From a virus (Duplodnaviria; Caudoviricetes): a stretch of 28,995 nucleotides of DNA. The stretch lies in IMG/VR virus record IMGVR_UViG_3300021124_000027, positions 1 to 28,995 of that record. The stretch is one strand, 5' to 3'. This document shows, piece by piece, positions 2,753 through 22,299 of the stretch. The notes under the pieces are model-generated. The model made no database searches. It saw nothing but the letters and a program-made list of their open reading frames with translations, and had not been told where the DNA came from. Both the position numbers and the translations under genes were made by a program. Position 1 is the first letter of the stretch. Each line of letters opens with the position of its first letter.

Positions 2753-3018
2753 AAACACATGTATTAAATTTTTATCAACAATGTTTTAATTAAAGGTGAA
2801 TTATGAATAAGTTTATATCTTGGAGTTTTCCGGTTTATCTAATAGTAATGTCCGGACTTATCATCTTAATGCAACAATAACCAATGACGGGGAAACCCGT
2901 CTATCACTTACAGGGGAATTAAATGATTTTATTAAAAGAAATTTTTTTTATTTTATTTCATACTGCACTAGGTTTTTTTCTAGGTGCTATCTATATTTTA
3001 AAGAATGGCGGGTTTTAA

Positions 3019-3267
3019 ATGGATAACTTAATTTTTACGATCGCTTCCCACTATGCTAGTGCAATAGTTAACGGGGATTACTCCGGCTTAGAAGATCACG
3101 AAGAAAAAGAACTAAACGGGTTTTTAGACCACTTAATGAGAGAGTTTAACTCTAATGATCTCCAGCTAACAGACTACTATTTACAAAATGAACCGGATTT
3201 TAACAGGTGCGAGATATCAAACCTATACGCTAATTGTATTCAATTCAATTTAATTAAAGGAGTTTAA
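3019..3267 (+). CDS. Hypothetical early protein
   Basis: 82-aa ORF; ASAIVNGDYSGLED motif typical of phage early genes. Confidence 0.7.
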   Translation: MDNLIFTIASHYASAIVNGDYSGLEDHEEKELNGFLDHLMREFNSNDLQLTDYYLQNEPDFNRCEISNLYANCIQFNLIKGV

Positions 3268-3270
3268 ACC

Positions 3271-3582
3271 ATGAAACAAACTATAAATTTTTATCAATTC
3301 TCGGACGAATTCAAGGCGATCCGCCCTAACAATTTCTCATATGAGGGATTACAAGCACTATTTGATTACTTGGAAGAATTAGAAAATGATCTAGGCGAAG
3401 AAATAGAATTAGATGTTATCGCCTTGTGCTGTGATTACACCGAGCAAACACTCGATGAATTTAACCGAGATTATTCGGAAGATGGAAAAATGAGCATGGA
3501 AGAAGCGATCGAATACCTTTGTGAAAATACCCATTTTGTAGATAAAACAAGTAATGAAACATTGATATATTTGCAATTTTAA
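3271..3582 (+). CDS. Highly acidic hypothetical early protein
   Basis: GGAG RBS; NNFSYEGLQALFDYLEE...ELDVIALCCDYTE motif; very D/E-rich. Confidence 0.8.
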   Translation: MKQTINFYQFSDEFKAIRPNNFSYEGLQALFDYLEELENDLGEEIELDVIALCCDYTEQTLDEFNRDYSEDGKMSMEEAIEYLCENTHFVDKTSNETLIYLQF

Positions 3583-3589
3583 ATATCAA

Positions 3590-3630
3590 CTGTAAGCCCT
3601 TTTACGAGGGTTTACGGGTGCTATTTTGCA
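3590..3630 (+). other. Intergenic double hairpin
   Basis: CTGTAAGCCCT/AGGGTTTACGG stem with G-U pairs, then GTGC/GCAC, just before the next RBS. Confidence 0.55.
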
Positions 3631-3647
3631 CTATACAAGGGGATTTT

Positions 3648-3788
3648 ATGACATTGAAAGAATTTATAGCACTATGTAGCGATTTTATGATTGATCCAAG
3701 TATTGCACTAGAAAACGAGGGTATATATAACGCCCTCACCAATAAAGATTATTCATTAGTTAAACAATTATTATCAACACAATTTTAA
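3648..3788 (+). CDS. Small hypothetical protein (46 aa)
   Basis: GGGGA RBS; MTLKEFIALCSDFMIDPSIALENE...STQF*. Confidence 0.7.
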   Translation: MTLKEFIALCSDFMIDPSIALENEGIYNALTNKDYSLVKQLLSTQF

Positions 3789-3797
3789 GGGGAAATC

Positions 3798-3950
3798 ATG
3801 ATAGAGGATTATGAGTTAATTACTTTTATTGATCAAGATGGAAAAGCACTTGACGACGATTTAAACGAATTTAGAAATGAAAACGGGGAAATAGTAATAA
3901 TTCCCGAAATGGAAAGAAAATATTTTACACAAATTGAAACGGGGAATTAA
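3798..3950 (+). CDS. Small acidic hypothetical protein (50 aa)
   Basis: GGGGA RBS; MIEDYELITFIDQDGKALDDDLNEF... Confidence 0.65.
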   Translation: MIEDYELITFIDQDGKALDDDLNEFRNENGEIVIIPEMERKYFTQIETGN

Positions 3951-4127
3951 ATGAATTATTACATTGAAAACGGGTTTAAAAACCGAAAAGATTATTTGAA
4001 CAGTTTAGCTGAAGATTTTGAAATAGCCAGGGCAACAGTTTACATGATGGCGGGTTTACTTGGAGAATCAGAAGATTTTGACGGGCTTATCACGAGCCTT
4101 GAGGATTACTTAGAAGCATTTTATTAA
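3951..4127 (+). CDS. Small acidic hypothetical protein (58 aa)
   Basis: MNYYIENGFKNRKDYLNSLAEDF...LGESEDFDGLITSLED; GGGGA RBS. Confidence 0.75.
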   Translation: MNYYIENGFKNRKDYLNSLAEDFEIARATVYMMAGLLGESEDFDGLITSLEDYLEAFY

Positions 4128-4169
4128 ACATTATTAGCCCGCCTAAAAACGGGCTTTAAAGGGGAAATT

Positions 4170-4361
4170 ATGAAAGAATTAAGAATTAAAAGATTATTAA
4201 AAATCTATCTACCCGTTTTTAATGATCATCAAAATATTGAAGGCGATTACTGCGAACCGTTAAACGAAGAACAAGCAAGCGAAAGCGGGTTTTTTATATA
4301 TTGGTGCGGGTTATGGGATGACAGAAGGCAAGAATTATCGCAACTTTTAAAAGGAAAATAA
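4170..4361 (+). CDS. Hypothetical protein
   Basis: GGGGA RBS; in-operon ORF. Confidence 0.65.
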   Translation: MKELRIKRLLKIYLPVFNDHQNIEGDYCEPLNEEQASESGFFIYWCGLWDDRRQELSQLLKGK

Positions 4362-4363
4362 TC

Positions 4364-4591
4364 GTGTCATTACTTCAAGAAATGGAAAAATTCGGATTAG
4401 CAGACTGCGAATTCAACCGAAAATTGTGGGAAGAGGAAGCCACTATCAAAAAAATATTATCTCTCACGGAATGTGTAGAAGATCAATTGATCATTATTCA
4501 CTCAACGGAAAATAAAGAGTTAATTAGATTAGCTAAGCGATCCATTGTAAAGCTGGAAAAAAAAATAACCCAATTAAAAGGATCACTATGA
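4364..4591 (+). CDS. Hypothetical protein
   Basis: GTG start; tightly packed in the operon. Confidence 0.65.
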   Translation: MSLLQEMEKFGLADCEFNRKLWEEEATIKKILSLTECVEDQLIIIHSTENKELIRLAKRSIVKLEKKITQLKGSL

Positions 4592-4758
4592 AAGAAATAT
4601 CACAAATTACCGTAGACACTTGGCTATCACAAAAAACCATAAAAATAACTGAATACGGGAATGAAAACACTTATTATATGGATAACTTTGGAAACGGATT
4701 TTATTGCAAAAATTACCCAAAAAATTATGGAATTGTTTTAAACATGGAGAAATTATGA
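4588..4758 (+). CDS. Small hypothetical protein (56 aa)
   Basis: ATGA-coupled on both sides; MKEISQITVDTW... Confidence 0.55.
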   Translation: MKEISQITVDTWLSQKTIKITEYGNENTYYMDNFGNGFYCKNYPKNYGIVLNMEKL

Positions 4759-4943
4759 AATATTTAGCAAAATGGAAAACAGAAAAATATTCTAGTGTAA
4801 GTTTATTGGACAGAAATTTTTTTACAGAAGATAACGGGTATTCTAAAGACGATTGTAAACGAATCACGCTTTTACGGGTAAATGATGTTATCGCTTTGTC
4901 AGATGGAATAAGCCAATTACATACAATTGAAAGGGTATTATGA
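4755..4943 (+). CDS. Hypothetical protein (start re-assigned to MKYLAKW)
   Basis: GGAG RBS before ATG 4755. Confidence 0.65.
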   Translation: MKYLAKWKTEKYSSVSLLDRNFFTEDNGYSKDDCKRITLLRVNDVIALSDGISQLHTIERVL

Positions 4944-5036
4944 ATAACTTTTGGGAATGGCTCACTGCCACGCTATTTGGAATACTCTTGGGGTATTTCT
5001 TTTATGTTGCATTTATCATGAATTCTTAAAAAAAAA

Positions 5037-5065
5037 TTGATATTTATTTTTTTTGGGAATATATT
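5037..5065 (+). promoter_or_regulatory. Putative sigma70 promoter
   Basis: TTGATA-N17-TATATT after an A-tract. Confidence 0.45.
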
Positions 5066-5094
5066 AAACGAATCATACTATCAAAGGGGAAATT

Positions 5095-5346
5095 ATGAAA
5101 TTTAGATTTATTTGCGATCCGTCGCACGGCTGGGGAGAGATTCCTATTTCTTTAATTAAAGATTTAGGACTGAACAATAAGATTAGTAATTTTTCTTATA
5201 AAAAAGACGATAACGCATATCTTGAGGAAGACTGCGATTTACCGTTAGTTTTACGGGAATTAAAAAAACAAGGAATAGAGTTTTCATTTTCTGAAGAACA
5301 TTCTAATTATGATTCTTGGGTAAGAAATTTAAAAAAGTTTAACTGA
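5095..5346 (+). CDS. Conserved phage hypothetical protein (DPxHGW...YLEEDCD type)
   Basis: GGGGA RBS; CDPSHGW, ISNFSY and YLEEDCD motifs. Confidence 0.8.
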   Translation: MKFRFICDPSHGWGEIPISLIKDLGLNNKISNFSYKKDDNAYLEEDCDLPLVLRELKKQGIEFSFSEEHSNYDSWVRNLKKFN

Positions 5347-5388
5347 TGAGGGTTTATTACCCGAAACTATCGAGAGATAGTCTTAAAC
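5337..5388 (+). ncRNA. Type I hammerhead ribozyme
   Basis: GTTTAA-CTGATGA-GGGT(TTATT)ACCC-GAAA-CTATC(GAGA)GATAG-TC-TTAAAC: complete core, three perfect stems; predicted cleavage after GUC (C5382). Confidence 0.92.
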
Positions 5389-5405
5389 AAACAAGGGGAA
5401 ATATC

Positions 5406-5585
5406 ATGGAAGATAGATTTATTGTTTTAGAAGAAGAGTTACCAGCTGATGAATATGAGGGCGGAGATCATTGGTATATCTATGATCTAGTGGATAACGA
5501 AGTATTAAATAATGAATGGTTTGAAACAGAAAAACAAGCTTACGATTATTTAAATTTGTATTTTGAACATGAGGGGATTTTATGA
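5406..5585 (+). CDS. Acidic hypothetical protein (start re-assigned to MEDRF)
   Basis: GGGGA RBS at 5395-5399; the ORF-track N-terminus corresponds to the ribozyme sequence. Confidence 0.7.
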   Translation: MEDRFIVLEEELPADEYEGGDHWYIYDLVDNEVLNNEWFETEKQAYDYLNLYFEHEGIL

Positions 5586-5932
5586 AAGTAACAATTCAAG
5601 CTGGTAAGTATTATTTAGGTGATCCATGCTATTCGCTAAATGAGTCATGGGGAAATATTTTAGAACAAACAGATTATTTTAAAACGCCATTAGTTACTAT
5701 TGATGGGTTTGAAATATTAGCTTTTAAAACTGCTTACGGGGACGGGGAATACCCAAGTAATGCCGGACGGAAATTTTGCGTTGATAGTGGTTTAATTGGA
5801 CTTGTTCCCGTAGAACTAGCGGACGATAAAGAGCCATTTAGCACAATGATCGTTGAATTTAATGAACCGACATTATGTAAACGGGTTAAGGGAAAATTGT
5901 ATTTTGGCAGAGTAGTCATTGACACTAACTAA
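5582..5932 (+). CDS. Conserved phage hypothetical protein (DPCY / TAYGDG / VDSG motifs)
   Basis: YYLGDPCY, TAYGDGEY and VDSGLIG motifs. Confidence 0.8.
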   Translation: MKVTIQAGKYYLGDPCYSLNESWGNILEQTDYFKTPLVTIDGFEILAFKTAYGDGEYPSNAGRKFCVDSGLIGLVPVELADDKEPFSTMIVEFNEPTLCKRVKGKLYFGRVVIDTN

Positions 5933-5943
5933 GGGGAAAGAAA

Positions 5944-6111
5944 ATGACTAAATATTATATTCGTGCTAGTGAAATAGTTTATTTTACTAAAGAAATCGAA
6001 GCAGATAATGAGGATCAAGCTTGGGAAAAAGCTTTAGATTTAAATTGGAGTAATGACGATTTAGTAAACAGACGAGATTTTACAATTGAAGAAGTAGAGG
6101 AGATTGAATAA
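5944..6111 (+). CDS. Small acidic protein (55 aa), DpnD/PcfM-like pattern
   Basis: MTKYYIRASEIVYFTKEIEADNEDQAWEKA; GGGGA RBS. Confidence 0.65.
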   Translation: MTKYYIRASEIVYFTKEIEADNEDQAWEKALDLNWSNDDLVNRRDFTIEEVEEIE

Positions 6112-6374
6112 TGTATCAAGTTAAACCTACTTTTATGGGCAATCCGGATAGAAACCAATACACTAATCCCGTTAAGCCCAAGACATTTACCGCCAACACC
6201 TTAGAAGCCCTCCGAGACGAGATTTACGAGTTTTTAGGGGATAACGACTTAGGTGCTGGTAATTGGGGAACGGCACGGGTTTTAAAGGACGGCAAGTTAT
6301 ACGGATACATGAGTTATAACGGGCGTATATGGGATTCTAATGAGTGGTCTCCAACTGCAAAGGAAATATTATGA
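6111..6374 (+). CDS. Conserved phage hypothetical protein
   Basis: GNPD..Q, LGAGNW and SYNGRIW motifs. Confidence 0.8.
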   Translation: MYQVKPTFMGNPDRNQYTNPVKPKTFTANTLEALRDEIYEFLGDNDLGAGNWGTARVLKDGKLYGYMSYNGRIWDSNEWSPTAKEIL

Positions 6375-6604
6375 GTCAAAGAAACCATTTAAAGCGGGCG
6401 GTAAAAATATTATGGAATAACTTCGAAAATGACATTAGGAAATCTCATGAATGGACTTGGAATTTAAAAAATTGGACTCTCCATTTTTATATCGTAGATG
6501 ATTATGAAAGTGTAGTGGCTTACTCCGTTAAAGGTGAATCAACCAATTGGAGTGATGGTATTTATTTAGAGCAAAGACAAAGAAAATGGGAGGAGTTAGT
6601 ATGA
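6371..6604 (+). CDS. Hypothetical protein
   Basis: ATGA-coupled; start MSQRNH. Confidence 0.65.
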   Translation: MSQRNHLKRAVKILWNNFENDIRKSHEWTWNLKNWTLHFYIVDDYESVVAYSVKGESTNWSDGIYLEQRQRKWEELV

Positions 6605-6822
6605 AATATGAAATACAACACTATACATTGTGTGATGGCTGGGTTAATACTTGGACAATTACCAATGAAGACGGCACAACGGAATCAGAGTATTTTGAGA
6701 CTAAAGAACAGGCGATCAGTGCTTTAGCTGATTTTATTGACGAGGAAAATAGAGAGTATTTACACGGGAATATAGATAGCCCGTATGACATTCAAGAATT
6801 TAGAATTGAGGAGGTTTTATAA
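6601..6822 (+). CDS. Acidic hypothetical protein
   Basis: GGAGG RBS; MKYEIQHYTLCDGWVNTW. Confidence 0.75.
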   Translation: MKYEIQHYTLCDGWVNTWTITNEDGTTESEYFETKEQAISALADFIDEENREYLHGNIDSPYDIQEFRIEEVL

Positions 6823-7091
6823 TGGGGTTTTTTGACGGATATGTAAATTACCATAGAACAAGTGGCGGTTATGAAGAAGAAACAACTGAAGGTAAAAAAT
6901 ACAAATCTTTTCGTGTAAACGATTTTGAATTTTTTGAAGGGTTTGGCGTTGATGAATTAAAAAAACTTTTAGCTTATGCAAAATTAGCAAAAGGAGATGG
7001 GTTTCACATACCTACGCAAAAAGGATATTCAACTTATTTGCCGACTTGGTATGCAGAAGCATTGGTTAAACATTATTTTGGGGATAAATAA
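6822..7091 (+). CDS. Hypothetical protein
   Basis: GAGG RBS; packed ORF. Confidence 0.7.
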   Translation: MGFFDGYVNYHRTSGGYEEETTEGKKYKSFRVNDFEFFEGFGVDELKKLLAYAKLAKGDGFHIPTQKGYSTYLPTWYAEALVKHYFGDK

Positions 7092-7283
7092 ATGAGTTTT
7101 ATTACTAAAAAAGAAACTATATTTAATGGTGGCGGGAACAAAGTGGACTGTTATACCTTAAAAAACGGAAAAGTAATTTGCATTAATGAGGATATGTTAG
7201 CCCTATATGGAGATATGGAAGATGCAGAAACCACAATTTTAGGTGATGGCCAAGATTTATCAATTCACAGTTTTTATTTTTAA
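7092..7283 (+). CDS. Hypothetical protein
   Basis: Packed ORF with GGGG RBS. Confidence 0.65.
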   Translation: MSFITKKETIFNGGGNKVDCYTLKNGKVICINEDMLALYGDMEDAETTILGDGQDLSIHSFYF

Positions 7284-7292
7284 GGGGGAAGT

Positions 7293-7568
7293 ATGAAAGT
7301 AGTTATTGAATTTGATTTACCGGAAGATCAAGCCATTCCAGATGTTGAGGATATTTTACGACTTAGTAATCCGAATTGGATTGCTGATTGGTGGCATATT
7401 TCAGATATAGAAAATGGGGATTGGGACGATCATGAAATAACAGATGATGATTGCCGAGAAATTTTAAGGCGAGCCGACAAGTATTTAGATTCTAATCAAG
7501 GGTTAAATTGGGAGTCAATGCAGTGTCATATTGACGAATATTTACGCAATTTAAGGAAAAACAAATGA
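7293..7568 (+). CDS. Acidic hypothetical protein
   Basis: AGGGGGAA RBS; WHISDI...CREIL...DSNQGLNWE motif. Confidence 0.75.
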   Translation: MKVVIEFDLPEDQAIPDVEDILRLSNPNWIADWWHISDIENGDWDDHEITDDDCREILRRADKYLDSNQGLNWESMQCHIDEYLRNLRKNK

Positions 7569-7750
7569 ACAATATGAAACGATATAAAGTTACTTACAAT
7601 GTTGGTAGAAGAATTATTGTAGAAGTGGATGTCCCAAACGGTGAACACCCGTATGATTATGCCCATGATTCTATTTTGCTTGAAATGCACGAAGATGAGT
7701 ATATTGACGATCAAGATTATGAGGAGATTGATCCGCATGACGCCAACTGA
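7565..7750 (+). CDS. Acidic hypothetical protein
   Basis: ATGA-coupled; D/E-rich C-terminus. Confidence 0.65.
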   Translation: MNNMKRYKVTYNVGRRIIVEVDVPNGEHPYDYAHDSILLEMHEDEYIDDQDYEEIDPHDAN

Positions 7751-8015
7751 TCATCACCAAGCAAGGATATTACAGGGTATGAGTGTCCATGCAGAGGTTA
7801 TCTTAGACCTTATAAAAACCTTGCCAAGACGAAATGTAATGCTGGTAATAGATAGTGCCGTTGATATGGAAATAGCGACTAGAAACACTGTTCACAAGTC
7901 AATCATGTGGCTTAAAAACAATGGTTATATCACTATGATAAGAAACGAAGGAGACGGGCGAGGTAAAACTTGCTCGATTACCAAGAGGGGATTGAATTAC
8001 TTAGATCAAGTCTAG
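7737..8015 (+). CDS. MarR-like winged-helix DNA-binding protein
   Basis: TVHKSIMWLKNNGYI...DGRGKTCSITKRG wing motif; start re-assigned to MTPTD. Confidence 0.7.
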   Translation: MTPTDHHQARILQGMSVHAEVILDLIKTLPRRNVMLVIDSAVDMEIATRNTVHKSIMWLKNNGYITMIRNEGDGRGKTCSITKRGLNYLDQV

Positions 8016-8768
8016 GATATTCCCTACATCTCCATGCAAAAACGCATCATTAAAATCGTAACCCTCAATGTCGGACTTCCAATATTGCCCTATCTTTTGG
8101 GCGGTTTGGAGTCCGATTTTGTCATGATCAGCGATTACTAACGGGTCATGCTTTCCCCTTGCAATTTCCAGCATATTCTGAGCAGAAAAACATACATGAA
8201 TTGTGTATCTCTTTTTAGCTTGTTTCAGAACTTCCCTCACCGATAACCCAGTGGCATATCCTTCAACAATTAAATCACGACCTTTATTGTCGATTACCAG
8301 CGAAGCACCTTTAGTAATCTGTCCACGCAAAAACTTCTTACTTCCCTCACTGTCTATCATTTGGCAACCGACCAATTTTCCGTCAATTCGCATAGGGACT
8401 AATAGCAGATTATTCCATACGGGTGCTTTTAAATCTGGAAAACCCTTACGGGCAAGGTATAAATGGGTCATGTCCGTAGCATGATTCAGCATAAAAACCG
8501 CCTTTGACTTTGCTTTAGATTGCTTCTCTAGCTGATCATCCTTAATTTTCTGTCGATCAATCTGTCTAAACGGGTCATAGTTTTTACTACGGAATGAGAT
8601 AGGTTTCTCATGGATAGCCCAATTTTGAATTGCACCAGATTGCCCATCCCAAATATACGAACCATTCTTTTTACTTGGTTTATCTTCCGTTGAAACCCTT
8701 GTCCATGAATTAATTTCTAATCTGTCAATAATAAGCCCGTGTTGCTGGGCGAAGTCGATGAATTCCAT
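8001..8768 (-). CDS. Toprim-domain primase-like protein
   Basis: IVEGYATGLS and VIADHD Toprim motifs; YLARKG and LLVPMR; likely start MEFIDF at 8768. Confidence 0.85.
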   Translation of the reverse strand: MEFIDFAQQHGLIIDRLEINSWTRVSTEDKPSKKNGSYIWDGQSGAIQNWAIHEKPISFRSKNYDPFRQIDRQKIKDDQLEKQSKAKSKAVFMLNHATDMTHLYLARKGFPDLKAPVWNNLLLVPMRIDGKLVGCQMIDSEGSKKFLRGQITKGASLVIDNKGRDLIVEGYATGLSVREVLKQAKKRYTIHVCFSAQNMLEIARGKHDPLVIADHDKIGLQTAQKIGQYWKSDIEGYDFNDAFLHGDVGNILDLI

Positions 8769-11275
8769 TTTGCTTTTCCTTTTGCGTATGCGATTGATCT
8801 TGAACGAATCCAATTAGCCGTCTCAAAGCTTGGCGGTATTGCTTGAACAACGCCCCATGCTTTCGGCGGGAATACCCCAACCTTTTCTTTAAATTTATGA
8901 GCAGACCATCCATCTTTGTATCCTCTTTCTCTGCCGTAATATAGTAACTCAGCATAGAATTTTTCTTGATTAATGTTCTTTTGTTTAATTTTACCGTCTA
9001 ATTCTTTGAGCTCTCCGGCAACTGAAACAATATGATTATTAATCTTTTTCTCGAATCCGCACTCATCACACGTATTTGTTTTAGATGTCCACAAACCAGC
9101 ACAAGCAGGGCATTTAGATTCTTTCTTTTCTCTTTCTGTTGGTTCAGCCCTAGTCGATTCCTTGCCCTCATTTAATTCTTTTACGCCATACTCATATAAA
9201 TCGTCCCAGTCTTTTCTGAAACGAAGATAATTTCCGGAATGATCTAGCCAAGTCGCAAATTCCTTGCCTTCATGCGTTCGCATTACTCTGCCCATCTGCT
9301 GAACATGAGAGCTTAATGATTTACTGAAAGGCCTAGCAGATATGCCAATCATTACATCTGATACATCAAACCCTTTTGTAAGAATATCCGTAGCGATTAG
9401 TCCGATAATTTCTGAGTCGGGTTTTGAGAATTCCTCAATAACCTGTCTTTTGTATTCACTATCTTCTTTATATGAGATTGAAACAAAATTATGCCCCGAT
9501 TGTTTAAAGTTTTTCTCTAAATCTCTGCCGTGATCCACGCCAGCACAGAACACAACTGTTTTAACAGGTTTGCCATATATTTCATAGGTTTTCTTATGCC
9601 ATTCTGCAACGATATCACCTGTAATCTTCATACCGCGATCTGTAATATCAGCTTCCGACCATTCACCAGCAACTTTTTTGGCGCCCGTCATGTCGATTTC
9701 TTTAGCAATAAACACTTTTAATGGTGTAAGCCACCTATCTTCAATCAACTCTTGCGTAGTGGGGGCATTAACGACATTGGAATAGATTTTACCCAACCCT
9801 TTGGTGAATGGTGTAGCAGTTAAACCGATTACTTTGAGATGGGGATTCTTTTCAATGATGTCAATAATGCCCTTGCGTTTTACATGGCACTCATCATAAA
9901 TCAATAACTCCATGTCCGGAGTAATGCTTCTAGATTCTAGTGTTTGCGCTGAACAGATTTGGATATGCTCTTGCGGTCTATGTCTCCAGTGTCCAGCTTG
10001 TAATACCCCATGCGGTATGTTGTATTTACCAAGTCGCAGACTGGTTTGCTCAACCAATACAATCCGATCAAGAATCATGGATACTTTTCTATGTTGCTTG
10101 GCATACTCCGCCATAATAGCAATTGCCATTTCAGTATTATGCGTTACCGTAAAATCACCCAATAAAAATAATTTATCTTTATCTATTTCAAAACCAAAAT
10201 ATTCGCCAGTTCCAATTGAATTTACTGTAATGCCAACTGATAGCGCATCTTTTTTTATTAATCTTGTTGTGGCTTTTTTTCTTGGTATTCTGCAAGGAAT
10301 TTTATCTGTGTTACCAGATATGGAAACTCTCCAATATATCCCTACTTTGCCATTGTTATGACATTTTTTTTGACACTCAACTATATAAGCCGCAAGACCC
10401 AAAGACCTTGCTAAATAAACAACTTCATGGGCAAGTCTTTTATTTTTTTGCACAAAATCAAAACAATTTCTACTTAAAGACCCATCTGTATCAATTAAAC
10501 CTGCTAATAATTCTAGCCTTTGAAACTCACTGCCAGTTAAATAAGAATGAGGGATATGTTTGTTACTAATTAAATTTAATGATTGAAAATCTTTTAACAA
10601 ACTATTGTTGTTCTTTCTGCCAGATGTAATATAAGCAACAACTGAATTGTTATTTTTTTGAAAGTCAATTTTTACTGATAACTTTCTAAATTCAGCTTCT
10701 TTATATATTTCCTCTAGTATCTCTTGATCTTCTGTGCATATTGCTGTTGTTTTTGATATTCCATCCCCTAGCCATAAGCCAAGATAATATGGATTAATTG
10801 GTTGGTACTTTTCCTCAAACAATACCCCCGTTCTCCATCCTTTTGCACAATGTTTAAAAGTCTTAGATTCTTTTAAATAATCTAAAACATTTATATTGTA
10901 AATTTTTCCAGTTTTATATTTGTCACTTCGAGAGCAATCCCATCTTGTTGCCCCTCCTGTTATTTTTAACGACAAAATATGAGCATCATTTACAATGTAT
11001 GAATCACCTTTTGTTGGTGTTACTTTGTATAATTCGCCAATTCCTTTAACGGTAGATAAAACAGTTCTAGGAAGGCTATCCGGTCCCATTAATAAGTCCC
11101 CAGCAACAACATTTTCCACCGTTTTAATAGTCCCATCGAACATTAAAACTGGAGTCCCTTTTCCCAAACATTTACCGCAACCTGTCGGCGCATATAAAAT
11201 CTGACTTCGGTGACTTTTAAAGCCCTCTAATAACTTATCTACTACTACTTTCTGATGTTCCCGTAATTGAAGCAT
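8717..11275 (-). CDS. SF2 DExH helicase (RadD/YejH-like) with C-terminal Zn finger, intein-containing
   Basis: APTGCGK|T, DECH, GLTATP, LTKGFD, QQMGRVMR, CPAC...CDEC. Confidence 0.93.
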   Translation of the reverse strand: MLQLREHQKVVVDKLLEGFKSHRSQILYAPTGCGKCLGKGTPVLMFDGTIKTVENVVAGDLLMGPDSLPRTVLSTVKGIGELYKVTPTKGDSYIVNDAHILSLKITGGATRWDCSRSDKYKTGKIYNINVLDYLKESKTFKHCAKGWRTGVLFEEKYQPINPYYLGLWLGDGISKTTAICTEDQEILEEIYKEAEFRKLSVKIDFQKNNNSVVAYITSGRKNNNSLLKDFQSLNLISNKHIPHSYLTGSEFQRLELLAGLIDTDGSLSRNCFDFVQKNKRLAHEVVYLARSLGLAAYIVECQKKCHNNGKVGIYWRVSISGNTDKIPCRIPRKKATTRLIKKDALSVGITVNSIGTGEYFGFEIDKDKLFLLGDFTVTHNTEMAIAIMAEYAKQHRKVSMILDRIVLVEQTSLRLGKYNIPHGVLQAGHWRHRPQEHIQICSAQTLESRSITPDMELLIYDECHVKRKGIIDIIEKNPHLKVIGLTATPFTKGLGKIYSNVVNAPTTQELIEDRWLTPLKVFIAKEIDMTGAKKVAGEWSEADITDRGMKITGDIVAEWHKKTYEIYGKPVKTVVFCAGVDHGRDLEKNFKQSGHNFVSISYKEDSEYKRQVIEEFSKPDSEIIGLIATDILTKGFDVSDVMIGISARPFSKSLSSHVQQMGRVMRTHEGKEFATWLDHSGNYLRFRKDWDDLYEYGVKELNEGKESTRAEPTEREKKESKCPACAGLWTSKTNTCDECGFEKKINNHIVSVAGELKELDGKIKQKNINQEKFYAELLYYGRERGYKDGWSAHKFKEKVGVFPPKAWGVVQAIPPSFETANWIRSRSIAYAKGKAKWNSSTSPSNTGLLLTD
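10136..11170 (-). mobile_element. 345-aa class 1 intein with LAGLIDADG endonuclease in helicase Walker A
   Basis: CLGKGTPVLMFDG start; LGLWLGDG and LAGLIDTDG; ends FLLGDFTVTHN followed by Thr+1. Confidence 0.95.
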
Positions 11276-11312
11276 TTTCTCTCCCTGATAAGATACCGCC
11301 TATCTTCGGTGT

Positions 11313-12125
11313 TTATTTTTCCAATTTCTTACATCTGTTGCGCCAGTAGGTTACTTCTTTAATTAACTCGGCATTTTTGTTTTGAAATTGATCCCTTGAA
11401 TTCTTTACTACGCTTAATTCTGACTCTAAAACCTTAACTCTTTTCTGCAATTCATTTATTTCATTTACTACTTTTTCCTCATCCCCTGACAATGCTAATT
11501 CTTTTGTCTTAAGGATTTGATTCTCTTCCACTAGCTTTTGATTAACAAACGATAACTCTTTTATCTCATCATCTGCCGGATTGTAATCTTCTATTTTATC
11601 TGCTTCTGGTTTCGGATCTTCTTTTTTTCCTATGTTGGTAGTCTCCATTGTTGTTTTTTTGCCCTTCATGGTGACTGCTTTCTTTGAAGGTCTTTCAATG
11701 GATAACTCTTTTCTCATATTGGCAACAAAAGTAGCGGATACCTTACATATCTTAGCCGTCTCTCTGTCTGAATATTCCGACCACTCAATGTCATTTAATA
11801 CTGTAGTGACTGCCTTTCTTTTATCTGTATTGGTTCTCTGGAAACCATGCTCGGCATTGACCCCAAAGGAATACAACTGAGCATCTCGGATTGTGCCATT
11901 ACGGACATTGACCTCAACCTTGCTAGTGCCGAGCTTCTGATACATGAAATACCGGTGAAAACCATCCACCAAGTAATAATTTACACCATCATAAAATGCT
12001 TCGATTGGCGGAAATATTGATCCCTCTTTACTGCTCTCTATATAGGTATTGATTACCTCTACGCTGATTCTTTCCCTTGATTGTGTACCGCCATCAATCT
12101 TAATCTTACTTAGTTCTAATAACAT
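11313..12125 (-). CDS. ParB/Srx-domain protein with HTH and C-terminal coiled coil
   Basis: FPPI...YLVDGFHR; SDRETAKICKVSATFV HTH; GGAG RBS before ATG 12125. Confidence 0.85.
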   Translation of the reverse strand: MLLELSKIKIDGGTQSRERISVEVINTYIESSKEGSIFPPIEAFYDGVNYYLVDGFHRYFMYQKLGTSKVEVNVRNGTIRDAQLYSFGVNAEHGFQRTNTDKRKAVTTVLNDIEWSEYSDRETAKICKVSATFVANMRKELSIERPSKKAVTMKGKKTTMETTNIGKKEDPKPEADKIEDYNPADDEIKELSFVNQKLVEENQILKTKELALSGDEEKVVNEINELQKRVKVLESELSVVKNSRDQFQNKNAELIKEVTYWRNRCKKLEK

Positions 12126-12151
12126 CTTTTCTCCTTTTAATGAATCTACTA

Positions 12152-12187
12152 TATCACACATGAATTAAAATGATGTCATCTGTGATA
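12152..12187. repeat. Degenerate ~35-bp element, copy 1 (copy 2 at 13204-13239)
   Basis: TATCACACATGAAT identical in both copies, followed by GATGT..CATCTGT. Confidence 0.6.
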
Positions 12188-12199
12188 AGAATAGGTTAA

Positions 12200-12637
12200 A
12201 CCACAGGGCGAGATGGTGATATGCCTGCTAAATAAGATATCAACCAAATGCCAGCCGACTTGCGTCCACTGCTTCCTGAGATAATGTTCTTCTTCCAAGA
12301 CGCCTATCAACTAGAGTCGGCCAAACTCCCTATGCATCACCTTAATCATGTCTTGTTCGTATCAGTACCCATTTAAGTCTGACTGCGCCGCCCTGTGTAT
12401 ATACTGCGAAGCGCAACCTGTTTCATTTAATTGCTCGGTCATTAGCAACGTCTCATGTAAGGTAGCTGAGACCAACCATCTGTATCGCCGTTCTGCGATT
12501 GCCAGTAGAAATGAAAAAACCTCTTGAAAGATATATTGCTGTAGAAAAGGGCACTTAGGTAAGTCATCCACGCAACTTATTAAAATGTCCTAACAATATA
12601 TCTATCAAGAGGTTTTCTGCGTTTTCTACTCCGCAAT
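12200..12637 (-). ncRNA. Putative large structured leader RNA/ncRNA upstream of the replication operon
   Basis: Many nested inverted repeats, no convincing ORF, promoter directly upstream. Confidence 0.6.
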
Positions 12638-12643
12638 ACAAAT

Positions 12644-12671
12644 ATTGTATCAAATCTATGGGAATGTGCAA
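12644..12671 (-). promoter_or_regulatory. Putative sigma70 promoter of the leader/replication operon
   Basis: TTGCAC-N16-TACAAT with TGn extension. Confidence 0.6.
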
Positions 12672-12683
12672 ATATTTTTGTCA

Positions 12684-12705
12684 CTTCTGCAAACGTTTGC
12701 AGTTA
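12684..12705. repeat. 22-bp palindromic element, copy 2
   Basis: CTTCTGCAAACGTTTGCAGTTA. Confidence 0.85.
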
Positions 12706-12706
12706 G

Positions 12707-12774
12707 AAATAAAATTGCCCTAGTTTTTTAGGCTAGGGCAACCACACAGGGGGGTGTGAACAGGGGGAACTGTT
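12707..12774 (-). ncRNA. Putative ~68-nt sRNA with two C-rich loops and an intrinsic terminator
   Basis: AACAG(TTCCCC)CTGTT-CACA(CCCCCC)TGTG-TGG-TTGCCCTAG(CCTAAAAAA)CTAGGGCAA-TTTTATTT. Confidence 0.7.
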
Positions 12775-12781
12775 AAATATA

Positions 12782-12809
12782 ATTGTAAAGGGATTTCATG
12801 GAATGTCAA
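12782..12809 (-). promoter_or_regulatory. Sigma70 promoter of the sRNA
   Basis: TTGACA-N16-TACAAT; predicted +1 near 12774. Confidence 0.7.
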
Positions 12810-12846
12810 TAAAAAAATGGGGGCGACCAAGTAGTCCAAACCCCCT
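12810..12846 (-). terminator. Probable intrinsic terminator after rusA
   Basis: GGGGG...CCCCC stem followed by ATTTTTTT on the minus strand. Confidence 0.55.
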
Positions 12847-12856
12847 AAAGACCTTC

Positions 12857-13213
12857 TCACAGGTATTCTTTAATTATAACCTGGCATCCGCCGTTTTTAA
12901 CCTTTTCACCACGTTCAACTGTTAATTTCCAGACTTGCTGATCATCTTCATACATATAGCCTTGCATAGAATCTAATATTGCTTTGCAACAATTATCTAT
13001 ATCCAACAATCTTTTGTCGCGCGGATACAACACTATGGATATTTCTACCTTAGAATCCCCGAATCCTTCTAAACTTTGACAGATATTAGCCACCGCAGAT
13101 TTAAAATCCATCCCTCTCTTGGAAATATATCTTCTATGTCCGGATGCTAGATACATGTTGTTGACTGAGGGCGGATAAGGAAAATAAAGGATGTGTTGTT
13201 TTTTATCACACAT
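12857..13213 (-). CDS. rusA: RusA-family Holliday junction resolvase
   Basis: PYPPSVNN, DKRLLDIDNCCKAILDSM and EDDQQV motifs. Confidence 0.92.
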   Translation of the reverse strand: MCDKKQHILYFPYPPSVNNMYLASGHRRYISKRGMDFKSAVANICQSLEGFGDSKVEISIVLYPRDKRLLDIDNCCKAILDSMQGYMYEDDQQVWKLTVERGEKVKNGGCQVIIKEYL

Positions 13214-13235
13214 GAATAAATAGATGTATCATCTG

Positions 13236-13264
13236 TTGACACCGTTAAATGGGTTTGATATTGT
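13236..13264 (+). promoter_or_regulatory. Putative sigma70 promoter of the long rightward operon
   Basis: TTGACA-N17-TATTGT with TGn. Confidence 0.6.
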
Positions 13265-13285
13265 TATTATACACAAGGGGGAATC

Positions 13286-13564
13286 ATGAAAATAGATTAC
13301 ACAAATATCAGCGAGCCGGAATGGTTGAAAGACCTTGCAGATGATAGTTGTTTAGGCATGAGAGATTTAATTGATATTTTTAAAATAAATCAAAAATGTT
13401 TAGAACAAAGAATTTATGCTGGTAATTTTCCGAAGCCTGATTTATCCCAAAAAAGTGTTTTAAATCGCAATCATATTTGGCAGGCAAGTAAGATGAAAAA
13501 AAACTTATGGCACGTTTCAACAATTAAAAAATTCTTCAAGGAAATAAAAAATGCATCTCACTAA
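13286..13564 (+). CDS. AlpA/excisionase-like HTH protein
   Basis: LGMRDLIDIFKI...IYAGNFPKP...W..STI pattern. Confidence 0.6.
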   Translation: MKIDYTNISEPEWLKDLADDSCLGMRDLIDIFKINQKCLEQRIYAGNFPKPDLSQKSVLNRNHIWQASKMKKNLWHVSTIKKFFKEIKNASH

Positions 13565-14423
13565 TAAATTTGGTTTACCAGAAGTATTTGTCAATCTAAC
13601 AAAGCGATCTACTTATTCAAAAGGGAGAGCTCACCTATCTGTTACAGAACTATTAAATAGTCCGCAGATTGTTCAATTAAAACGTAAGCATTGGGATGAT
13701 CTCGAGGAAGATGTGGCTGACAAAATATTTGCATTATTCGGCACTGCCATGCACTCTATCTTAGAGCATGGGAAAACAGAGGGAACAATTGTTGAAGAAA
13801 GAATCCACACTACAGTAGATGGATGGAATATTTCCGGTGCAATTGACCTTCAAGAAATCAGTGATCAAGGTATTAGCGTCAAAGATTACAAGACTACGGG
13901 TGCTTGGGCAGCAATGCAAGAAAAGGCTGAATGGGAACAACAGTTAAATATTTATGCATATCTTGTCGAAGCAGTAAAGGGCGCACCAGTGACTGATTTA
14001 GGCATTGTGGCCATTATTCGTGATTGGAATAAGCGAGAGTCTCAGACTAAAGAAAACTACCCAGAAGCACCCATTAAAGTAATCCCAATTACCTTATGGA
14101 GTTTTGCGGAAAGAGAACAGTTTATTAAGGATCGCATTACCTTACATAGCAACGCGCATCTATCTACAGAAATTGGAGAGGGTTATACGCCTTGCACACC
14201 ATCAGAAATGTGGGAAACGGAAACAGTTTATGCAATCAAAAAGACGGGCGGAGTAAGGGCAAAATCTTTACACGCAACTCAAGAGGAAGCCGACCAAAAG
14301 TTGGCTGAGCTCGGCAAGGGGTATGAATTAGAAGTAAGAAAAGGGGAAAGACGCCGGTGTAAGGATTATTGCCAAGTCAATCAATTTTGTAATCAATATA
14401 AAGAATATTTGGAGAAGCAATGA
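13551..14423 (+). CDS. PD-(D/E)XK exonuclease, Cas4-like
   Basis: FGTAMH, SGAID, DYKTT and QLNIY; C-terminal Cys cluster C...CKDYCQVNQFC. Confidence 0.88.
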   Translation: MHLTNKFGLPEVFVNLTKRSTYSKGRAHLSVTELLNSPQIVQLKRKHWDDLEEDVADKIFALFGTAMHSILEHGKTEGTIVEERIHTTVDGWNISGAIDLQEISDQGISVKDYKTTGAWAAMQEKAEWEQQLNIYAYLVEAVKGAPVTDLGIVAIIRDWNKRESQTKENYPEAPIKVIPITLWSFAEREQFIKDRITLHSNAHLSTEIGEGYTPCTPSEMWETETVYAIKKTGGVRAKSLHATQEEADQKLAELGKGYELEVRKGERRRCKDYCQVNQFCNQYKEYLEKQ

Positions 14424-14563
14424 GTGAATTAGCAACCATAAAGAATTCAAGATTTGTTTATAAGTCTGGTTCTGACGTATTAGCAACATGGAAGAAAACG
14501 GGATGGGTGCCACCATCAGAATATCGCAAAGACTATTTATTCGGAGAGAAAAATGCTAGGTGA
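14420..14563 (+). CDS. Small hypothetical protein (47 aa)
   Basis: ATGA-coupled; DVLATWKKTGWVPPSE. Confidence 0.65.
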   Translation: MSELATIKNSRFVYKSGSDVLATWKKTGWVPPSEYRKDYLFGEKNAR

Positions 14564-14771
14564 AAGACAACAAGCTATGTTACGGGCAGTAGCAAGAGAT
14601 CCAAAAGATCCTTTATTTGGTAAGCCGAATGAGTTATTAAATCTTGCAATAGATAGAATTATGTTGGAGCAACCTAATGCCTTTTTGGAGGAAAAGGATT
14701 TTAAGAATAGAAAATTCTATCATAAGCCAAGACATGCTGAAACCCTATATAAAAGTTACATTAAGGAGTGA
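14553..14771 (+). CDS. Hypothetical protein
   Basis: GGAG RBS; packed ORF. Confidence 0.65.
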   Translation: MLGERQQAMLRAVARDPKDPLFGKPNELLNLAIDRIMLEQPNAFLEEKDFKNRKFYHKPRHAETLYKSYIKE

Positions 14772-14778
14772 GAACAAA

Positions 14779-15072
14779 ATGAAACATCAACATTCACAAG
14801 TAATTAAAGCTTTTGCCGATGGGAAAGATTGTGAGTATTTTTTTAGTAATGAAGTAACTCAATGCTGGTTTCCCATAACCGATATAAGAGATTTTTACTA
14901 TCAAGAAGCTGTAAGAATCAAACCATTAGAGTTAAAAAAAGAAATTAGATTTACTATTGCTTATCTTGAATCTGTATATGAACCAAAAACCTTTCAACAT
15001 GAAATGGATAATCTCAAACTTACATTTGATGGTGAATCAAAAAAACTTATATTTGCAGAGGTGATTAAATGA
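14779..15072 (+). CDS. Hypothetical protein
   Basis: Start MKHQHSQVIKAFADG; LKLTFDGE motif. Confidence 0.7.
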   Translation: MKHQHSQVIKAFADGKDCEYFFSNEVTQCWFPITDIRDFYYQEAVRIKPLELKKEIRFTIAYLESVYEPKTFQHEMDNLKLTFDGESKKLIFAEVIK

Positions 15073-15290
15073 AAGCATTTCCATGCAAAGAAATACATAT
15101 ATCTGAAGTTAATGGTGATTTTGCAATTGAAGAGCATAAAGGCATGGATTTAAGAGATTACTTCGCTGCTAAAGCAATGCAATCAATTTTATTAGGCATT
15201 GTTACATCTAGTAATGATATAGACCAAGATTATATTACTAGTGTGTCTTATGATTTAGCCAATTCAATGATGGAAGCGAGGGAAAAATGA
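15069..15290 (+). CDS. Conserved phage protein (GMxLRDYFAAKAMQ type)
   Basis: MKAFP...GMDLRDYFAAKAMQ...SYDLANSMMEAR. Confidence 0.8.
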   Translation: MKAFPCKEIHISEVNGDFAIEEHKGMDLRDYFAAKAMQSILLGIVTSSNDIDQDYITSVSYDLANSMMEAREK

Positions 15291-15589
15291 GTGATGATGT
15301 TCAATTAGCGGGTTTTGGTGCTATTCCCGAGTCTGGTCGCACAAAATGGCAAGGCGCTTTTTTTGGGGTTAATCCAAGTTCTGATGGATATGACATGGGG
15401 TTTGACACGGAACAAAAAGCCAAAGAAAAATTTTTAATAGATTTATTAAGTTTTTTATCCGCAAATCCACGCATAGTAATGTATTGGCGAAGACTTCCAA
15501 TGCTTACTGTTTCATATGATTTTGATTCTGAAGTAGTTAAGTATAAATGTACGGGAAGAATTGCCTATACAAATTTGGAGAACGTTTAA
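15287..15589 (+). CDS. Hypothetical protein
   Basis: ATGA-coupled ORF. Confidence 0.65.
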   Translation: MSDDVQLAGFGAIPESGRTKWQGAFFGVNPSSDGYDMGFDTEQKAKEKFLIDLLSFLSANPRIVMYWRRLPMLTVSYDFDSEVVKYKCTGRIAYTNLENV

Positions 15590-15756
15590 TGCTTGCAGAA
15601 AAATTACACATTCAATTATATAAATACAACTCTAATGAAGAAATATTTCAAATTCGAAGAGTATTTTCAGATGAAGAGCATGAGCCTAAAATTTTTCATT
15701 ATATTGTGGATGGCATGTTAAAAGAATTAAATCATGCAATCAAAGAAAGCGAGTAA
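15589..15756 (+). CDS. Hypothetical protein
   Basis: GGAG RBS; start MLAEK. Confidence 0.55.
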   Translation: MLAEKLHIQLYKYNSNEEIFQIRRVFSDEEHEPKIFHYIVDGMLKELNHAIKESE

Positions 15757-15759
15757 GAC

Positions 15760-15987
15760 ATGAGCTGGGCTGAAGAACAGGCTATTGACATAGGGCCGCC
15801 AAATCGGTTTGGAGAATTTTTTCCAACTCGAGAGTCAAGCAATATTTGGGCAACCAAGGATGGCAGAAGATTGAAGATAAGCGAAATGACAGACGAGCAT
15901 CTTTATAACGCTTATAAAAAATTTAACGCTGAAACTTTGGCAAGAGAAATTTTATTAAGACTATTTAAGAAAGAGGTTGAAAAATGA
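15760..15987 (+). CDS. Hypothetical protein
   Basis: WATKDGRRLKISEMTDEHLYNA motif. Confidence 0.7.
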   Translation: MSWAEEQAIDIGPPNRFGEFFPTRESSNIWATKDGRRLKISEMTDEHLYNAYKKFNAETLAREILLRLFKKEVEK

Positions 15988-16190
15988 TTAAAGGTTATAG
16001 AGAGTTAACAGATGACGAAATCAAAAACATTAATGACATTAAAGAAATAGCAAATTTAATTGGTGGGATGATTGTAGAAATGGAAAAAACAAATGGTATT
16101 GATCAAAGATGGGTAGCAATTGCCAAAACGGATTTACAAAAAGGGTTTATGGCGATGGTTCGCTCAATCGCACAACCAACTTCATTTTAA
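15984..16190 (+). CDS. acb2: Acb2-family cyclic-nucleotide sponge (anti-CBASS)
   Basis: IKGYRELTDDEI..INDIKE and RWVAIAKTDLQKGFMAMVRSIAQPTSF closely follow Acb2 as recalled (IKGYRDLSQEEI..NRVKE...[27 protein letters not shown]). Confidence 0.9.
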   Translation: MIKGYRELTDDEIKNINDIKEIANLIGGMIVEMEKTNGIDQRWVAIAKTDLQKGFMAMVRSIAQPTSF

Positions 16191-20983: not shown

Positions 20984-21192
20984 AACGCTGTTGGAATAGG
21001 CGCACATTGTACTCAGTCCATGTAAACAGACCAATTGAGAAGCCAGGGTTATGGAAAAACTTTATTGAAACAACTAATTTAAATAGTGCAATAAGATTTA
21101 ATAAGAAGTTGAAGTTGAAGTATAGGCAAATAGATGTAACAACATATGGCAGAAACCGTAAAAGGTTTGTTTTGAAAAAAAGTTGGTTATAG
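20980..21192 (+). CDS. Basic hypothetical protein
   Basis: ATGA-coupled; K/R-rich. Confidence 0.55.
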   Translation: MKRCWNRRTLYSVHVNRPIEKPGLWKNFIETTNLNSAIRFNKKLKLKYRQIDVTTYGRNRKRFVLKKSWL

Positions 21193-21201
21193 GGGGAATA
21201 A

Positions 21202-21510: not shown

Positions 21511-22290
21511 ATGAATTGTTTTAAATTTAAAAGCGGTGAGCAACATATTGTTTTAGAAAATTATGATACTGATGCGAAAGTATATTTAAAATATACTGGA
21601 GATGAATCTTTTTTTAAAATGTTATTAAAGGTTGATGCTCTTAGACGCAGGGGTATAAAGCATCTTGAATTAATTGCTCCATATTTTCCAGGCTCTAGAC
21701 AGGATCGAATTAATGTACGAGGTGAGCCACTTACTGTAAAAGTTTATGCCGATATTATTAACCTACAACAGTTTGATAGGGTATACATTTTTGACCCACA
21801 TAGCGATGTTACACCTGCTTTGATTAACAATGTCTTTTCCATTGATAATCACGGGCTTGTAGCAACAGCTATTAATGCATACGAATGGCAGAATTACATC
21901 CTTGTTTCGCCAGATGCGGGATCCAATAAAAAAATCTATTCTTTATCTCAATTTCTAGATGGCCCACCTGTTATTCGTGCTGATAAGATTCGCAATACCA
22001 CAACAGGGGAAATTACCGGAACAGAGGTTTATTGTTCTGATCTCAATGGGCAAACCTGCATTATTGTGGATGACATTTGCTCTGGTGGCAGAACTTTTAT
22101 GGAGCTCGCCAAGAAGTTAAGGGAGAAAAATGCAGGAGAAATTATATTAATTGTGTCTCATTATGAAGGAGTTGCGAATTTACAACACATGAAAGAGAGT
22201 GGTATTGATAAAATCATTACAACAAATAGCATTAATGAATTAGCATCAACCGACTATTTGGAAGTAACTAATGTTTTTCAATTTATTTAA
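21511..22290 (+). CDS. Ribose-phosphate pyrophosphokinase-like protein; probable ADPR-PP synthetase (Adps) of NARP1
   Basis: PYFPGSRQDR, DPHS, VSPDAG and IVDDICSGGRTF PRTase loop; adjacent to a NAMPT-like gene. Confidence 0.88.
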   Translation: MNCFKFKSGEQHIVLENYDTDAKVYLKYTGDESFFKMLLKVDALRRRGIKHLELIAPYFPGSRQDRINVRGEPLTVKVYADIINLQQFDRVYIFDPHSDVTPALINNVFSIDNHGLVATAINAYEWQNYILVSPDAGSNKKIYSLSQFLDGPPVIRADKIRNTTTGEITGTEVYCSDLNGQTCIIVDDICSGGRTFMELAKKLREKNAGEIILIVSHYEGVANLQHMKESGIDKIITTNSINELASTDYLEVTNVFQFI

Positions 22291-22299
22291 GGGGAAATA

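Follow-up and report, generated by a model that had tools for sequence, protein, structure and literature searches.

A 68-nt unit on the minus strand of the phage DNA analyzed here is probably a trans-acting antisense sRNA, whose C-rich loops would pair with the Shine-Dalgarno (SD) sequence of the gene starting at 13286, block ribosome loading, and likely turn the divergent recombination operon down. The DNA (the window, 28,995 nt) is a 29-kb phage record fragment with a CheckV completeness of 46%. Judged from comparison of related loci, the unit represents a conserved family of phage sRNAs, and the comparative evidence for a target in the phage's own genome is unusually good.

The unit occupies positions 12809–12707 of the minus strand and has the parts of a self-contained sRNA gene, as the initial annotation proposed. 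A sigma-70-type promoter (12782..12809, minus strand; TTGACA-N16-TACAAT) matches the consensus at 11/12 positions, with TTGACA at 12809–12804, a 16 nt spacer, and TACAAT at 12787–12782. It has the top score among the 22 promoter-like sites in the 6 kb scanned (10000–16000), a number of sites at chance level (22.5 in shuffles). The predicted 68-nt sRNA (12707..12774, minus strand), defined by its fold and its family, reads from 12774 to 12707 as hairpin 1 (12759..12774; AACAG-UUCCCC-CUGUU), hairpin 2 (12743..12758; CACAC-CCCCCU-GUGUG), each with a 5-bp stem, and an intrinsic terminator (12707..12742) with a 10-bp stem, a 9-nt loop, and the U tract UUUAUUU; the terminator is recognized by fold and covariation. 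The loop UUCCCC is as originally described, whereas the second loop, first read as CCCCCC, should read CCCCCU, since its supposed sixth C belongs to the stem. The fold has a minimum free energy of -23.2 kcal/mol and a z-score of -5.61, equaled by 0/200 shuffles. The locus had been described as free of open reading frames, and no ORF of at least 50 aa in the window ORF list overlaps it; Rfam gives no match at the locus, even at E values up to 5. An own promoter and intrinsic terminator without an ORF, the marks of a trans-encoded base-pairing sRNA, are thus present at the level of pattern and conservation.

Upstream of the sRNA, a terminator-like hairpin (12811..12845, minus strand; GGGGG...CCCCC-U7) would end the rusA/GUGA-hairpin transcript, in agreement with the probable rusA terminator first placed there, though its z-score is only -2.05. 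The same arrangement is found in L250, L253, L254, L056, L276, and L280. A simple terminator scan listed neither this hairpin nor the sRNA terminator. A second short unit (12811–12878, minus strand) consists of a TATAAT within the rusA 3' end, an ACCU-GUGAGA-AGGU hairpin, and a terminator. A GUGA-hairpin and terminator with an extended -10 is the sole short unit after rusA in L037–L043, L048, L069, L255–L265, L286, L292, and L304.

The sRNA closely follows rusA and precedes a ParB-like/helicase/primase operon, sharing the strand of both. The rusA-like resolvase gene (12857..13213, minus strand; PHROG 34, E 8e-27), whose true start is probably downstream of 13213, separates the sRNA from its predicted target. 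The divergent operon runs rightward from its own promoter (13236..13264, plus strand; TTGACA-N17-TATTGT with TG, a 10/12 match) and codes for a 92-aa orphan, a PD-(D/E)XK exonuclease and later an ERF annealing protein, with PRPP synthetase and NAMPT further on. The orphan gene (13286..13564, plus strand) belongs to no family; its product has one homologue cluster and no PHROG or real Pfam match, and a Cox-like HTH is only a weak lead (Atlas feature match 0.92 at rank 13). The exonuclease gene (13551..14423, plus strand; PHROG 2139, PF12705) overlaps it.

Several other features of the window are recorded here. The PRPP synthetase and NAMPT genes form an NAD salvage pair (21511–23778, plus strand), directly preceded by the gene at 21202. 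The leader of the ParB-like gene contains a long rod (12516–12616, minus strand) with 23-nt arms that are 96% complementary (z -7.0 for 12505–12645). The element also takes in 12620–12640 and 12505–12515; an inner UUUUCUAC is complementary to an upstream GUAGAAAA, and strain L001 alters both. The rod has no Rfam match and resembles the C4/P4-CI antisense elements; counterparts with other sequences occupy the same place in L038, L052, L078, L081, and L064. A 17-nt direct repeat (core TATCACACATGAAT, 94%) is operator-like and is present at 12152–12168, before the ParB-like gene, and at 13204–13220, in the rusA/13286 divergent promoter region. The helicase (8717–11275, minus strand) has 852 aa compared with ~492 aa in relatives, and its insert, which matches terminase families over residues 15–398, is probably an intein. 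A 72-aa protein with a LexA-type DNA-binding domain and no peptidase (1269–1487, minus strand) adjoins a small terminase-like gene; the relative G004 has one too.

The predicted main target is the 5' UTR and ribosome binding site (RBS) of the gene at 13286 (13270..13288, plus strand), with a pairing energy of -11.7 kcal/mol including accessibility; pairing energies are from our own simplified accessibility model built on ViennaRNA, not from IntaRNA. Within hairpin 1, GUUCCCCCU is predicted to pair over 9 bp with this RBS, and the loop and 3' stem strand of hairpin 2 could form 11 bp with one bulge across the short 5' UTR. The leader is nearly unstructured, and cofolding it with the sRNA gives -37.4 versus -25.5 for the two separately, a gain of ~12 kcal/mol. 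The 13286 start ranks 3 of the 72 starts in the window.

The RBS itself contains AGGGGGAA at 13276–13283. Outside the RNA locus this sequence occurs at 7283–7290, 13276–13283, and 21191–21198, in 3/3 cases just before a start codon (7293, 13286, and 21202; 0.06 expected). The first two copies had been pointed out in the initial annotation and the third is additional. Its reading of the NAMPT gene RBS as AGGGGAA is confirmed, and many rightward genes do have G-rich RBSs: with genes called by our own script, GGGG SDs precede 15/62 plus-strand genes and 1/10 minus-strand genes (a doubtful TTG start), or 16/72 overall. These are concentrated in the 2800–8015 cluster, at 10/21 genes. The GGGG-SD share of 0.22 in the window is the highest among records with at least 25 genes except for the phage's own strain L249 (0.35); the others range from 0.00 to 0.16.

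Conservation of the unit in homologous loci, which the initial annotation had proposed to look for, is observed. We compared 148 related loci, obtained through RusA searches of viral and metagenome contigs plus one pattern scan; the set includes duplicates between collections, loci ending soon after rusA, and 33 distant loci (RusA 52–58%) that have coding DNA directly after rusA. A three-hairpin unit with C-loops follows rusA in 41/148 loci, corresponding to 23 distinct RNAs. The descriptor used (hairpin, C-loop hairpin, terminator) is derived from these same examples. Run over both strands of the window plus 10 relatives (748 kb), it gives one match per record in 9/11 records and none elsewhere; 541 dinucleotide-shuffled copies of the window yield 25 matches. 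The relative L252 bridges the window and the family, with the terminator kept, stem 1 changed on both sides, and loop 1 rewritten; L250, L253, L254, L238, and L241 are further intermediates. Exact copies of hairpin 1 occur in 13 stretches of viral contigs, one of them a strain copy (L034) and 12 in unrelated contexts, and among the matches listed in an anti-start pattern scan most are apparently ordinary RBS sites. No sRNA-like unit is seen by eye in the divergent intergenic region of Pag-Yong1. A small ORF on the opposite strand was considered and rejected; the SD+ATG complement opens only 3, 8, and 18 codons (L012, L014, and L013; by eye), and the window has no ATG there.

The terminator stem exhibits two-sided changes at 9/9 pairs with 96% of cells paired, exceeding 500/500 shuffles and all slid controls (covariation 0.95 versus 0.24 shuffled). 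Hairpins 1 and 2 are out of register in the MAFFT alignment, and therefore only the terminator is counted with controls. These two hairpins exhibit little covariation and have nearly invariant cores; the CAC/GUG core of hairpin 2 is unchanged in 18/18 clade-A RNAs. The terminator loop (12724–12732, minus strand) is kept as NCUAAUCCN or CCUAAAAAA (CUAAUCC or CUAAAAA) while the stem drifts; SD pairing does not account for this, and the loop is possibly a protein site. Because the opposite strand folds slightly better in 22/23 RNAs, fold energy does not tell the strand, and the strand assignment rests on the U tract and on the promoter, with an extended -10 (TGn[TA]AnnnT) within 20 nt upstream in 16/23 distinct family members. 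A covariance model, as had been suggested, recovers the window RNA at E 0.014 when built on 6 distant members (model R1); it counts as weak support because it has 5 pairs only and a second window match reaches E 0.046.

Two observations concern the gene content around the family. In G003 (L333 13601–13918), a different gene of no Pfam family takes the place of rusA, yet the sRNA is retained and still matches the exonuclease RBS; L238 is a close relative of G003. In type B and D loci, a 46–59 aa gene, phasin-like by eye, directly follows the sRNA (L336 3174–3314; L016 3590–3769), and its G004 copy has no Pfam or PHROG match.

Comparisons of the relatives provide evidence that the loops follow the RBS of the first gene; whether loops co-vary with each phage's RBS wording was a test proposed in the initial annotation. 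In 27/27 testable loci the phage's own RNA pairs over the first-gene SD (28 loci are given; L061 is dropped, its first gene being uncalled). Own pairings average -9.8 kcal/mol versus -7.2 for foreign pairings (permutation p ~1e-5, with loci that are not independent), and over 9 author-defined RNA classes the true own assignment ranks 1 of 362,880. On an exonuclease tree of 25 loci, 5/7 path-independent pairs favor own pairing, another opposes it by 0.2, and the last is a tie; in the draw shown, four of the five favoring pairs do so by 4–7 kcal/mol, although five versus one is too few for significance on a sign test. The co-changes are specific: GGGGG occurs with the C-run loops CCCCC (window, L252), AAGGGGA with CUCCCCUU (L253), GGAGGGA or GGGAGG with the UCCCUCC-type CUCCCUCC (L250, L254), GGAGGA with UCCUCC, and GAGGAG with CUCCUC. 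The first-gene protein differs from one relative to another but keeps a matching RBS, so the conserved part is the leader.

The window RNA reaches -9 to -13 at GGGG-type first-gene sites versus -2 to -6.5 at Z-class GGAGGA sites. The seed of the three-hairpin types is only 6–8 bp, and a CCUCC loop will pair with whatever strong SD is offered, so the Z classes tell little. Some foreign RNAs bind the window target as well or better (L253 -14.0, L065 -14.8, L075 -11.9). Ranked against the other starts of its genome, the first gene reaches the top tenth in 8/17 genomes only, with a median quantile of 0.125; in 3 more genomes it is uncalled. A G-U asymmetry test for RNA pairing versus a DNA repeat around rusA is negative overall, with 39 wobble versus 50 A-C changes (p 0.90) in alignments that run through stems and are noisy; the unstructured D/E/F types, a subset picked post hoc, have 14 wobble versus 2 A-C changes. 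Conserved, co-varying complementarity to a target elsewhere, as expected of a base-pairing sRNA, is thus found, with few independent pairs and a negative wobble test.

A second match involves the exonuclease leader. In clade Z3, loop 1 and stem are a perfect 12–13 bp complement of this leader in L073, L066, L235, L076, and L314; L076 alters both partners, and L301 is without both the loop and the site. The match is kept via G-U pairs in L061 and L062, has one mismatch in L064, and is poor in L059. In the window, in L056 and L280, and in most B/E loci, this leader is not targeted (matrix p 0.026). A GGAG-N-ATGAAG start-codon target was also tried and rejected, having few matches that are not consistently above control; the loop's real match is the exonuclease leader. 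RNAs of other folds at the rusA slot match their own first-gene RBS as well, over 11 bp in L080, ~19 bp in L277, and ~17 bp, including the start codon, in L057, L065, L307, L310, and L322; the differently folded RNA of L300 likewise matches its own, within the range of 11 to ~19 bp for such RNAs. The GUGA-hairpin (type C) units are mostly without a first-gene RBS match (10/14 weaker than -5), and the type D loci L053 and L278 have -2.4 at a first gene whose start is uncertain.

The breadth of the target set bears on how the sRNA is used. The initial annotation had early and anti-defense genes silenced jointly through a shared G-rich RBS. Joint silencing of all GGGGA genes is plausible but only partly supported, and it is unlikely that the main role of the sRNA is to silence the whole GGGG-RBS set to a similar degree, with the RBS wording as the tag by which early genes are addressed; this role is nested with the repression of the 13286 operon that we prefer. 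The best start regions in the window are those of 21202 (21191..21198, plus strand, before the PRPP synthetase-NAMPT genes; -13.6 kcal/mol over 11 bp with hairpin 1, the strongest predicted duplex in the window), 7293 (7283..7290, plus strand, in the 2800–8015 cluster; -10.0), and 13286 (-9.9), the first two being secondary candidate sites, and the small early genes, NAMPT, and ERF reach -5 to -8. Joint silencing fits the 10/21 GGGG RBSs of the early cluster, L250 and L254, whose CUCCCUCC loops occur alongside GGGAG/GAGGG RBSs in 4/7 and 4/11 genes, and the genome-wide matching of own RNA to own start regions (residual -0.41 over 21 loci, p ~1e-5; first of 720 assignments of the 6 classes), in which the window RNA puts its own genome in first place among 21; this comparison covers 21 of 24 scored loci, types D and the 3-gene L253 being left out. 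However, own-matching holds for same-strand genes too (residual -0.31), and most secondary GGGG sites are 6-bp contacts of -5 to -8 kcal/mol. Starts reaching -5 favor the opposite over the same strand in G003 (7/54 vs 0/47, p 0.01) and G004 (9/56 vs 2/58, p 0.023), but this bias is significant in only 2/6 genomes; it is not so in the window (11/62 vs 0/10, p 0.17), G005, G001, or G002. G003 also retains GGGG RBSs in its early cluster despite its UCCUCC-loop RNA, though U-G pairs would permit binding. No anti-defense gene is identified among the predicted targets with an annotation that included no defense or anti-defense library. In L238/G007 (L342 18139–18927, 16618–18096), loop 1 UUCUCUCU matches the GAGAGAG RBSs of two genes encoded on the same strand as the RNA, the ParB-like gene and the helicase gene, and some family members may thus reach the replication operon too.

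Other explanations place the function elsewhere. The unit heads the replication operon and could be a promoter-proximal attenuator or anti-terminator of the downstream ParB-like/helicase/primase genes, or a protein-binding RNA, with the SD match a by-product, arising for example from an old duplication of the divergent leader that left a direct DNA repeat flanking rusA. This would agree with the negative wobble test and with the conserved terminator loop that SD pairing leaves unexplained. It is nonetheless improbable, since a neutral repeat would not keep step with the RBS through several RNA folds and at two different target genes, it is the loop-exposed bases that match while the terminator stem drifts, and relatives have separate promoter-like sites farther downstream (by eye). 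The chances are slim that the sRNA is instead an immunity or exclusion factor that accumulates in a cell already carrying the phage and there shuts off the first operon of any newcomer whose RBS wording is the same, like P1/P7 c4 heteroimmunity. The loop/RBS pairs are divided into several specificity classes, the C4/CI-like rod (12516–12616) adjoins the sRNA, and c4 acts at its own phage's RBS (PMC12197685), but foreign RNAs often bind the window site as well as the own RNA does, and no tyrosine integrase, resolvase, or S24 peptidase is found in 5/5 records, the window plus four relatives, of which two reach 93% and 100% completeness. Controls for this search are detected in 9–14 of 14 genomes, and no integrase or repressor is named among the 69 of 115 G004 proteins scanned in PHROGs. 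A carrier state may be possible despite the missing integrase and repressor; the lysogeny switch first suggested for this RNA is unsupported, because none of these genes is found in the window or the four relatives. Least probable, and barely credible, is host shut-off, with host mRNAs bearing strong SDs as the main targets and phage matches incidental. Most relatives do have loops with CCUCC, which is the canonical anti-SD motif, and cuckoo and 6C RNAs act on many mRNAs; however, the window RNA is without CCUCC and weak at canonical sites, its own phage has moved to GGGGG, and the 13-bp match of Z3 is to a phage leader.

The sRNA resembles several known systems. Cuckoo (RSs0680/CcsR, ar14; RF02344) of Alphaproteobacteria has 2–4 adjacent hairpins with CCUCCUCCC in each loop (PMC4615179). 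The phage sRNA shares the adjacent hairpins (here two and a terminator), variable stems, and anti-SD-like C-rich loops. Unlike the one fixed CCUCCUCCC of cuckoo, its loops differ between hairpins and phages, following each phage's own RBS, and it is phage-encoded in a Betaproteobacteria-type context. The full cuckoo motif is in none of the parsed family loops (UUCCCC and CCCCCU in the window), and the cuckoo and 6C Rfam models have no match in the window, 16 related loci, or L336 1500–5000. The 6C sRNA of Mycobacterium and other Actinobacteria binds mRNAs directly through C-rich loops (PMC6486639), and the window RNA, with two hairpins and C-run loops, looks most like 6C in shape. Whereas 6C is chromosomal, conserved in high-GC Gram-positives, and has a fixed loop, the phage loop varies, and there is no sign of an actinobacterial host; relatives carry the Betaproteobacteria-1 RNA (RF02932). 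The P1/P7 c4 RNA blocks its own phage's ant mRNA near the RBS and sets heteroimmunity (PMC12197685). The sRNA, likewise a phage RNA with phage-specific variants, is predicted to pair with an own-phage mRNA near its RBS. Unlike c4, which has an antirepressor target in a temperate phage, it is a stand-alone gene that would pair with the SD itself of a divergent operon ~500 nt away, in phages without a detectable integrase or repressor and with a target gene of no family; no C4 Rfam match is present in the window. c4 is processed from the same operon as its target, and P4 CI and P22 sar are comparable phage antisense RNAs. RsaE is a C-rich-motif sRNA of Firmicutes. The C-rich UCCC loop motifs of Firmicutes sRNAs such as RNAIII seed pairing at G-rich RBSs (PMC4615179). 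RNAIII and RsaE have a similar UCCC seed but differ in size, fold, and host range, and are not phage-encoded. The predicted sRNA works like cuckoo, 6C, and c4, yet fails the defining motif or model of each. No description of it was found in the literature, the alignment and structure archives of PMC10690425 lying outside that search. The latter study predicts 8,495 RNAs from IMG/VR; its readable tables contain none of the motifs tried, and an entry for the structure, with no function assigned, may already exist there.

Relatives also provide information on the host. RF02932 is present (77–97 bits) in 6/16 related loci and G004, further along the same intergenic region and ahead of the replication operon (L300 2960–3081, L292 1151–1270, L289 1134–1256, L255 1776–1895, L303 1291–1414, L295 1307–1430, and L336 3544–3668), and is absent from the window. 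This suggests that the Betaproteobacteria-1 motif is a phage element and, because relatives carry it, hints at a betaproteobacterial host; the main text of PMC5737381 does not name the motif. A scan of genome contigs finds only 2 MAG contigs, labeled Bacteroidetes/Bacteroidales and possibly misbinned. The nearest cultured phages are distant (exonuclease at most 36%, RusA at most 44%), and the capsid of G004 is 70% identical to those of MinM2/Pag-Yong1/Pra-JY27.

If the sRNA represses the 13286 operon, as we prefer, it would be made from the start of infection by the host polymerase, and would be stable and accumulate. A C-loop would contact the 13286 SD over 6–8 bp and then extend into the stem strand (9–11 bp in the window). 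Pairing over the SD would block ribosome loading on the first cistron, and the loss of its translation would spread to the exonuclease, which overlaps it, and to the genes beyond. Early recombination functions would in this way be shut off with a delay, sparing the GGAG-type replication genes on the RNA's strand, with 7293, 21202, the small early genes, ERF, and NAMPT as likely weaker secondary targets. A broader, more tentative possibility, which we regard as doubtful, is that this phage group times its early genes, and perhaps excludes kin, without a repressor protein, using an exchangeable sRNA in a fixed slot after rusA and the SD wording as a private address. The SDs of silenced genes would then be reworded in each lineage (GGGGG, GGAGGGA, GAGGAG, AAAGGAU) while still loading ribosomes, and the wording of the window phage would be nearly orthogonal to canonical host GGAGG sites.

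Phage sRNAs in the literature consulted mostly act on host genes or on the immunity operons of temperate phages; here the apparent target is the phage's own operon. The natural series of co-changed loop and RBS pairs represents ready-made swap controls, and would yield small sRNA-RBS pairs with partial orthogonality to host sites. It makes testable both the use of SD wording as a regulatory address and the timing of phage gene expression by RNA alone.
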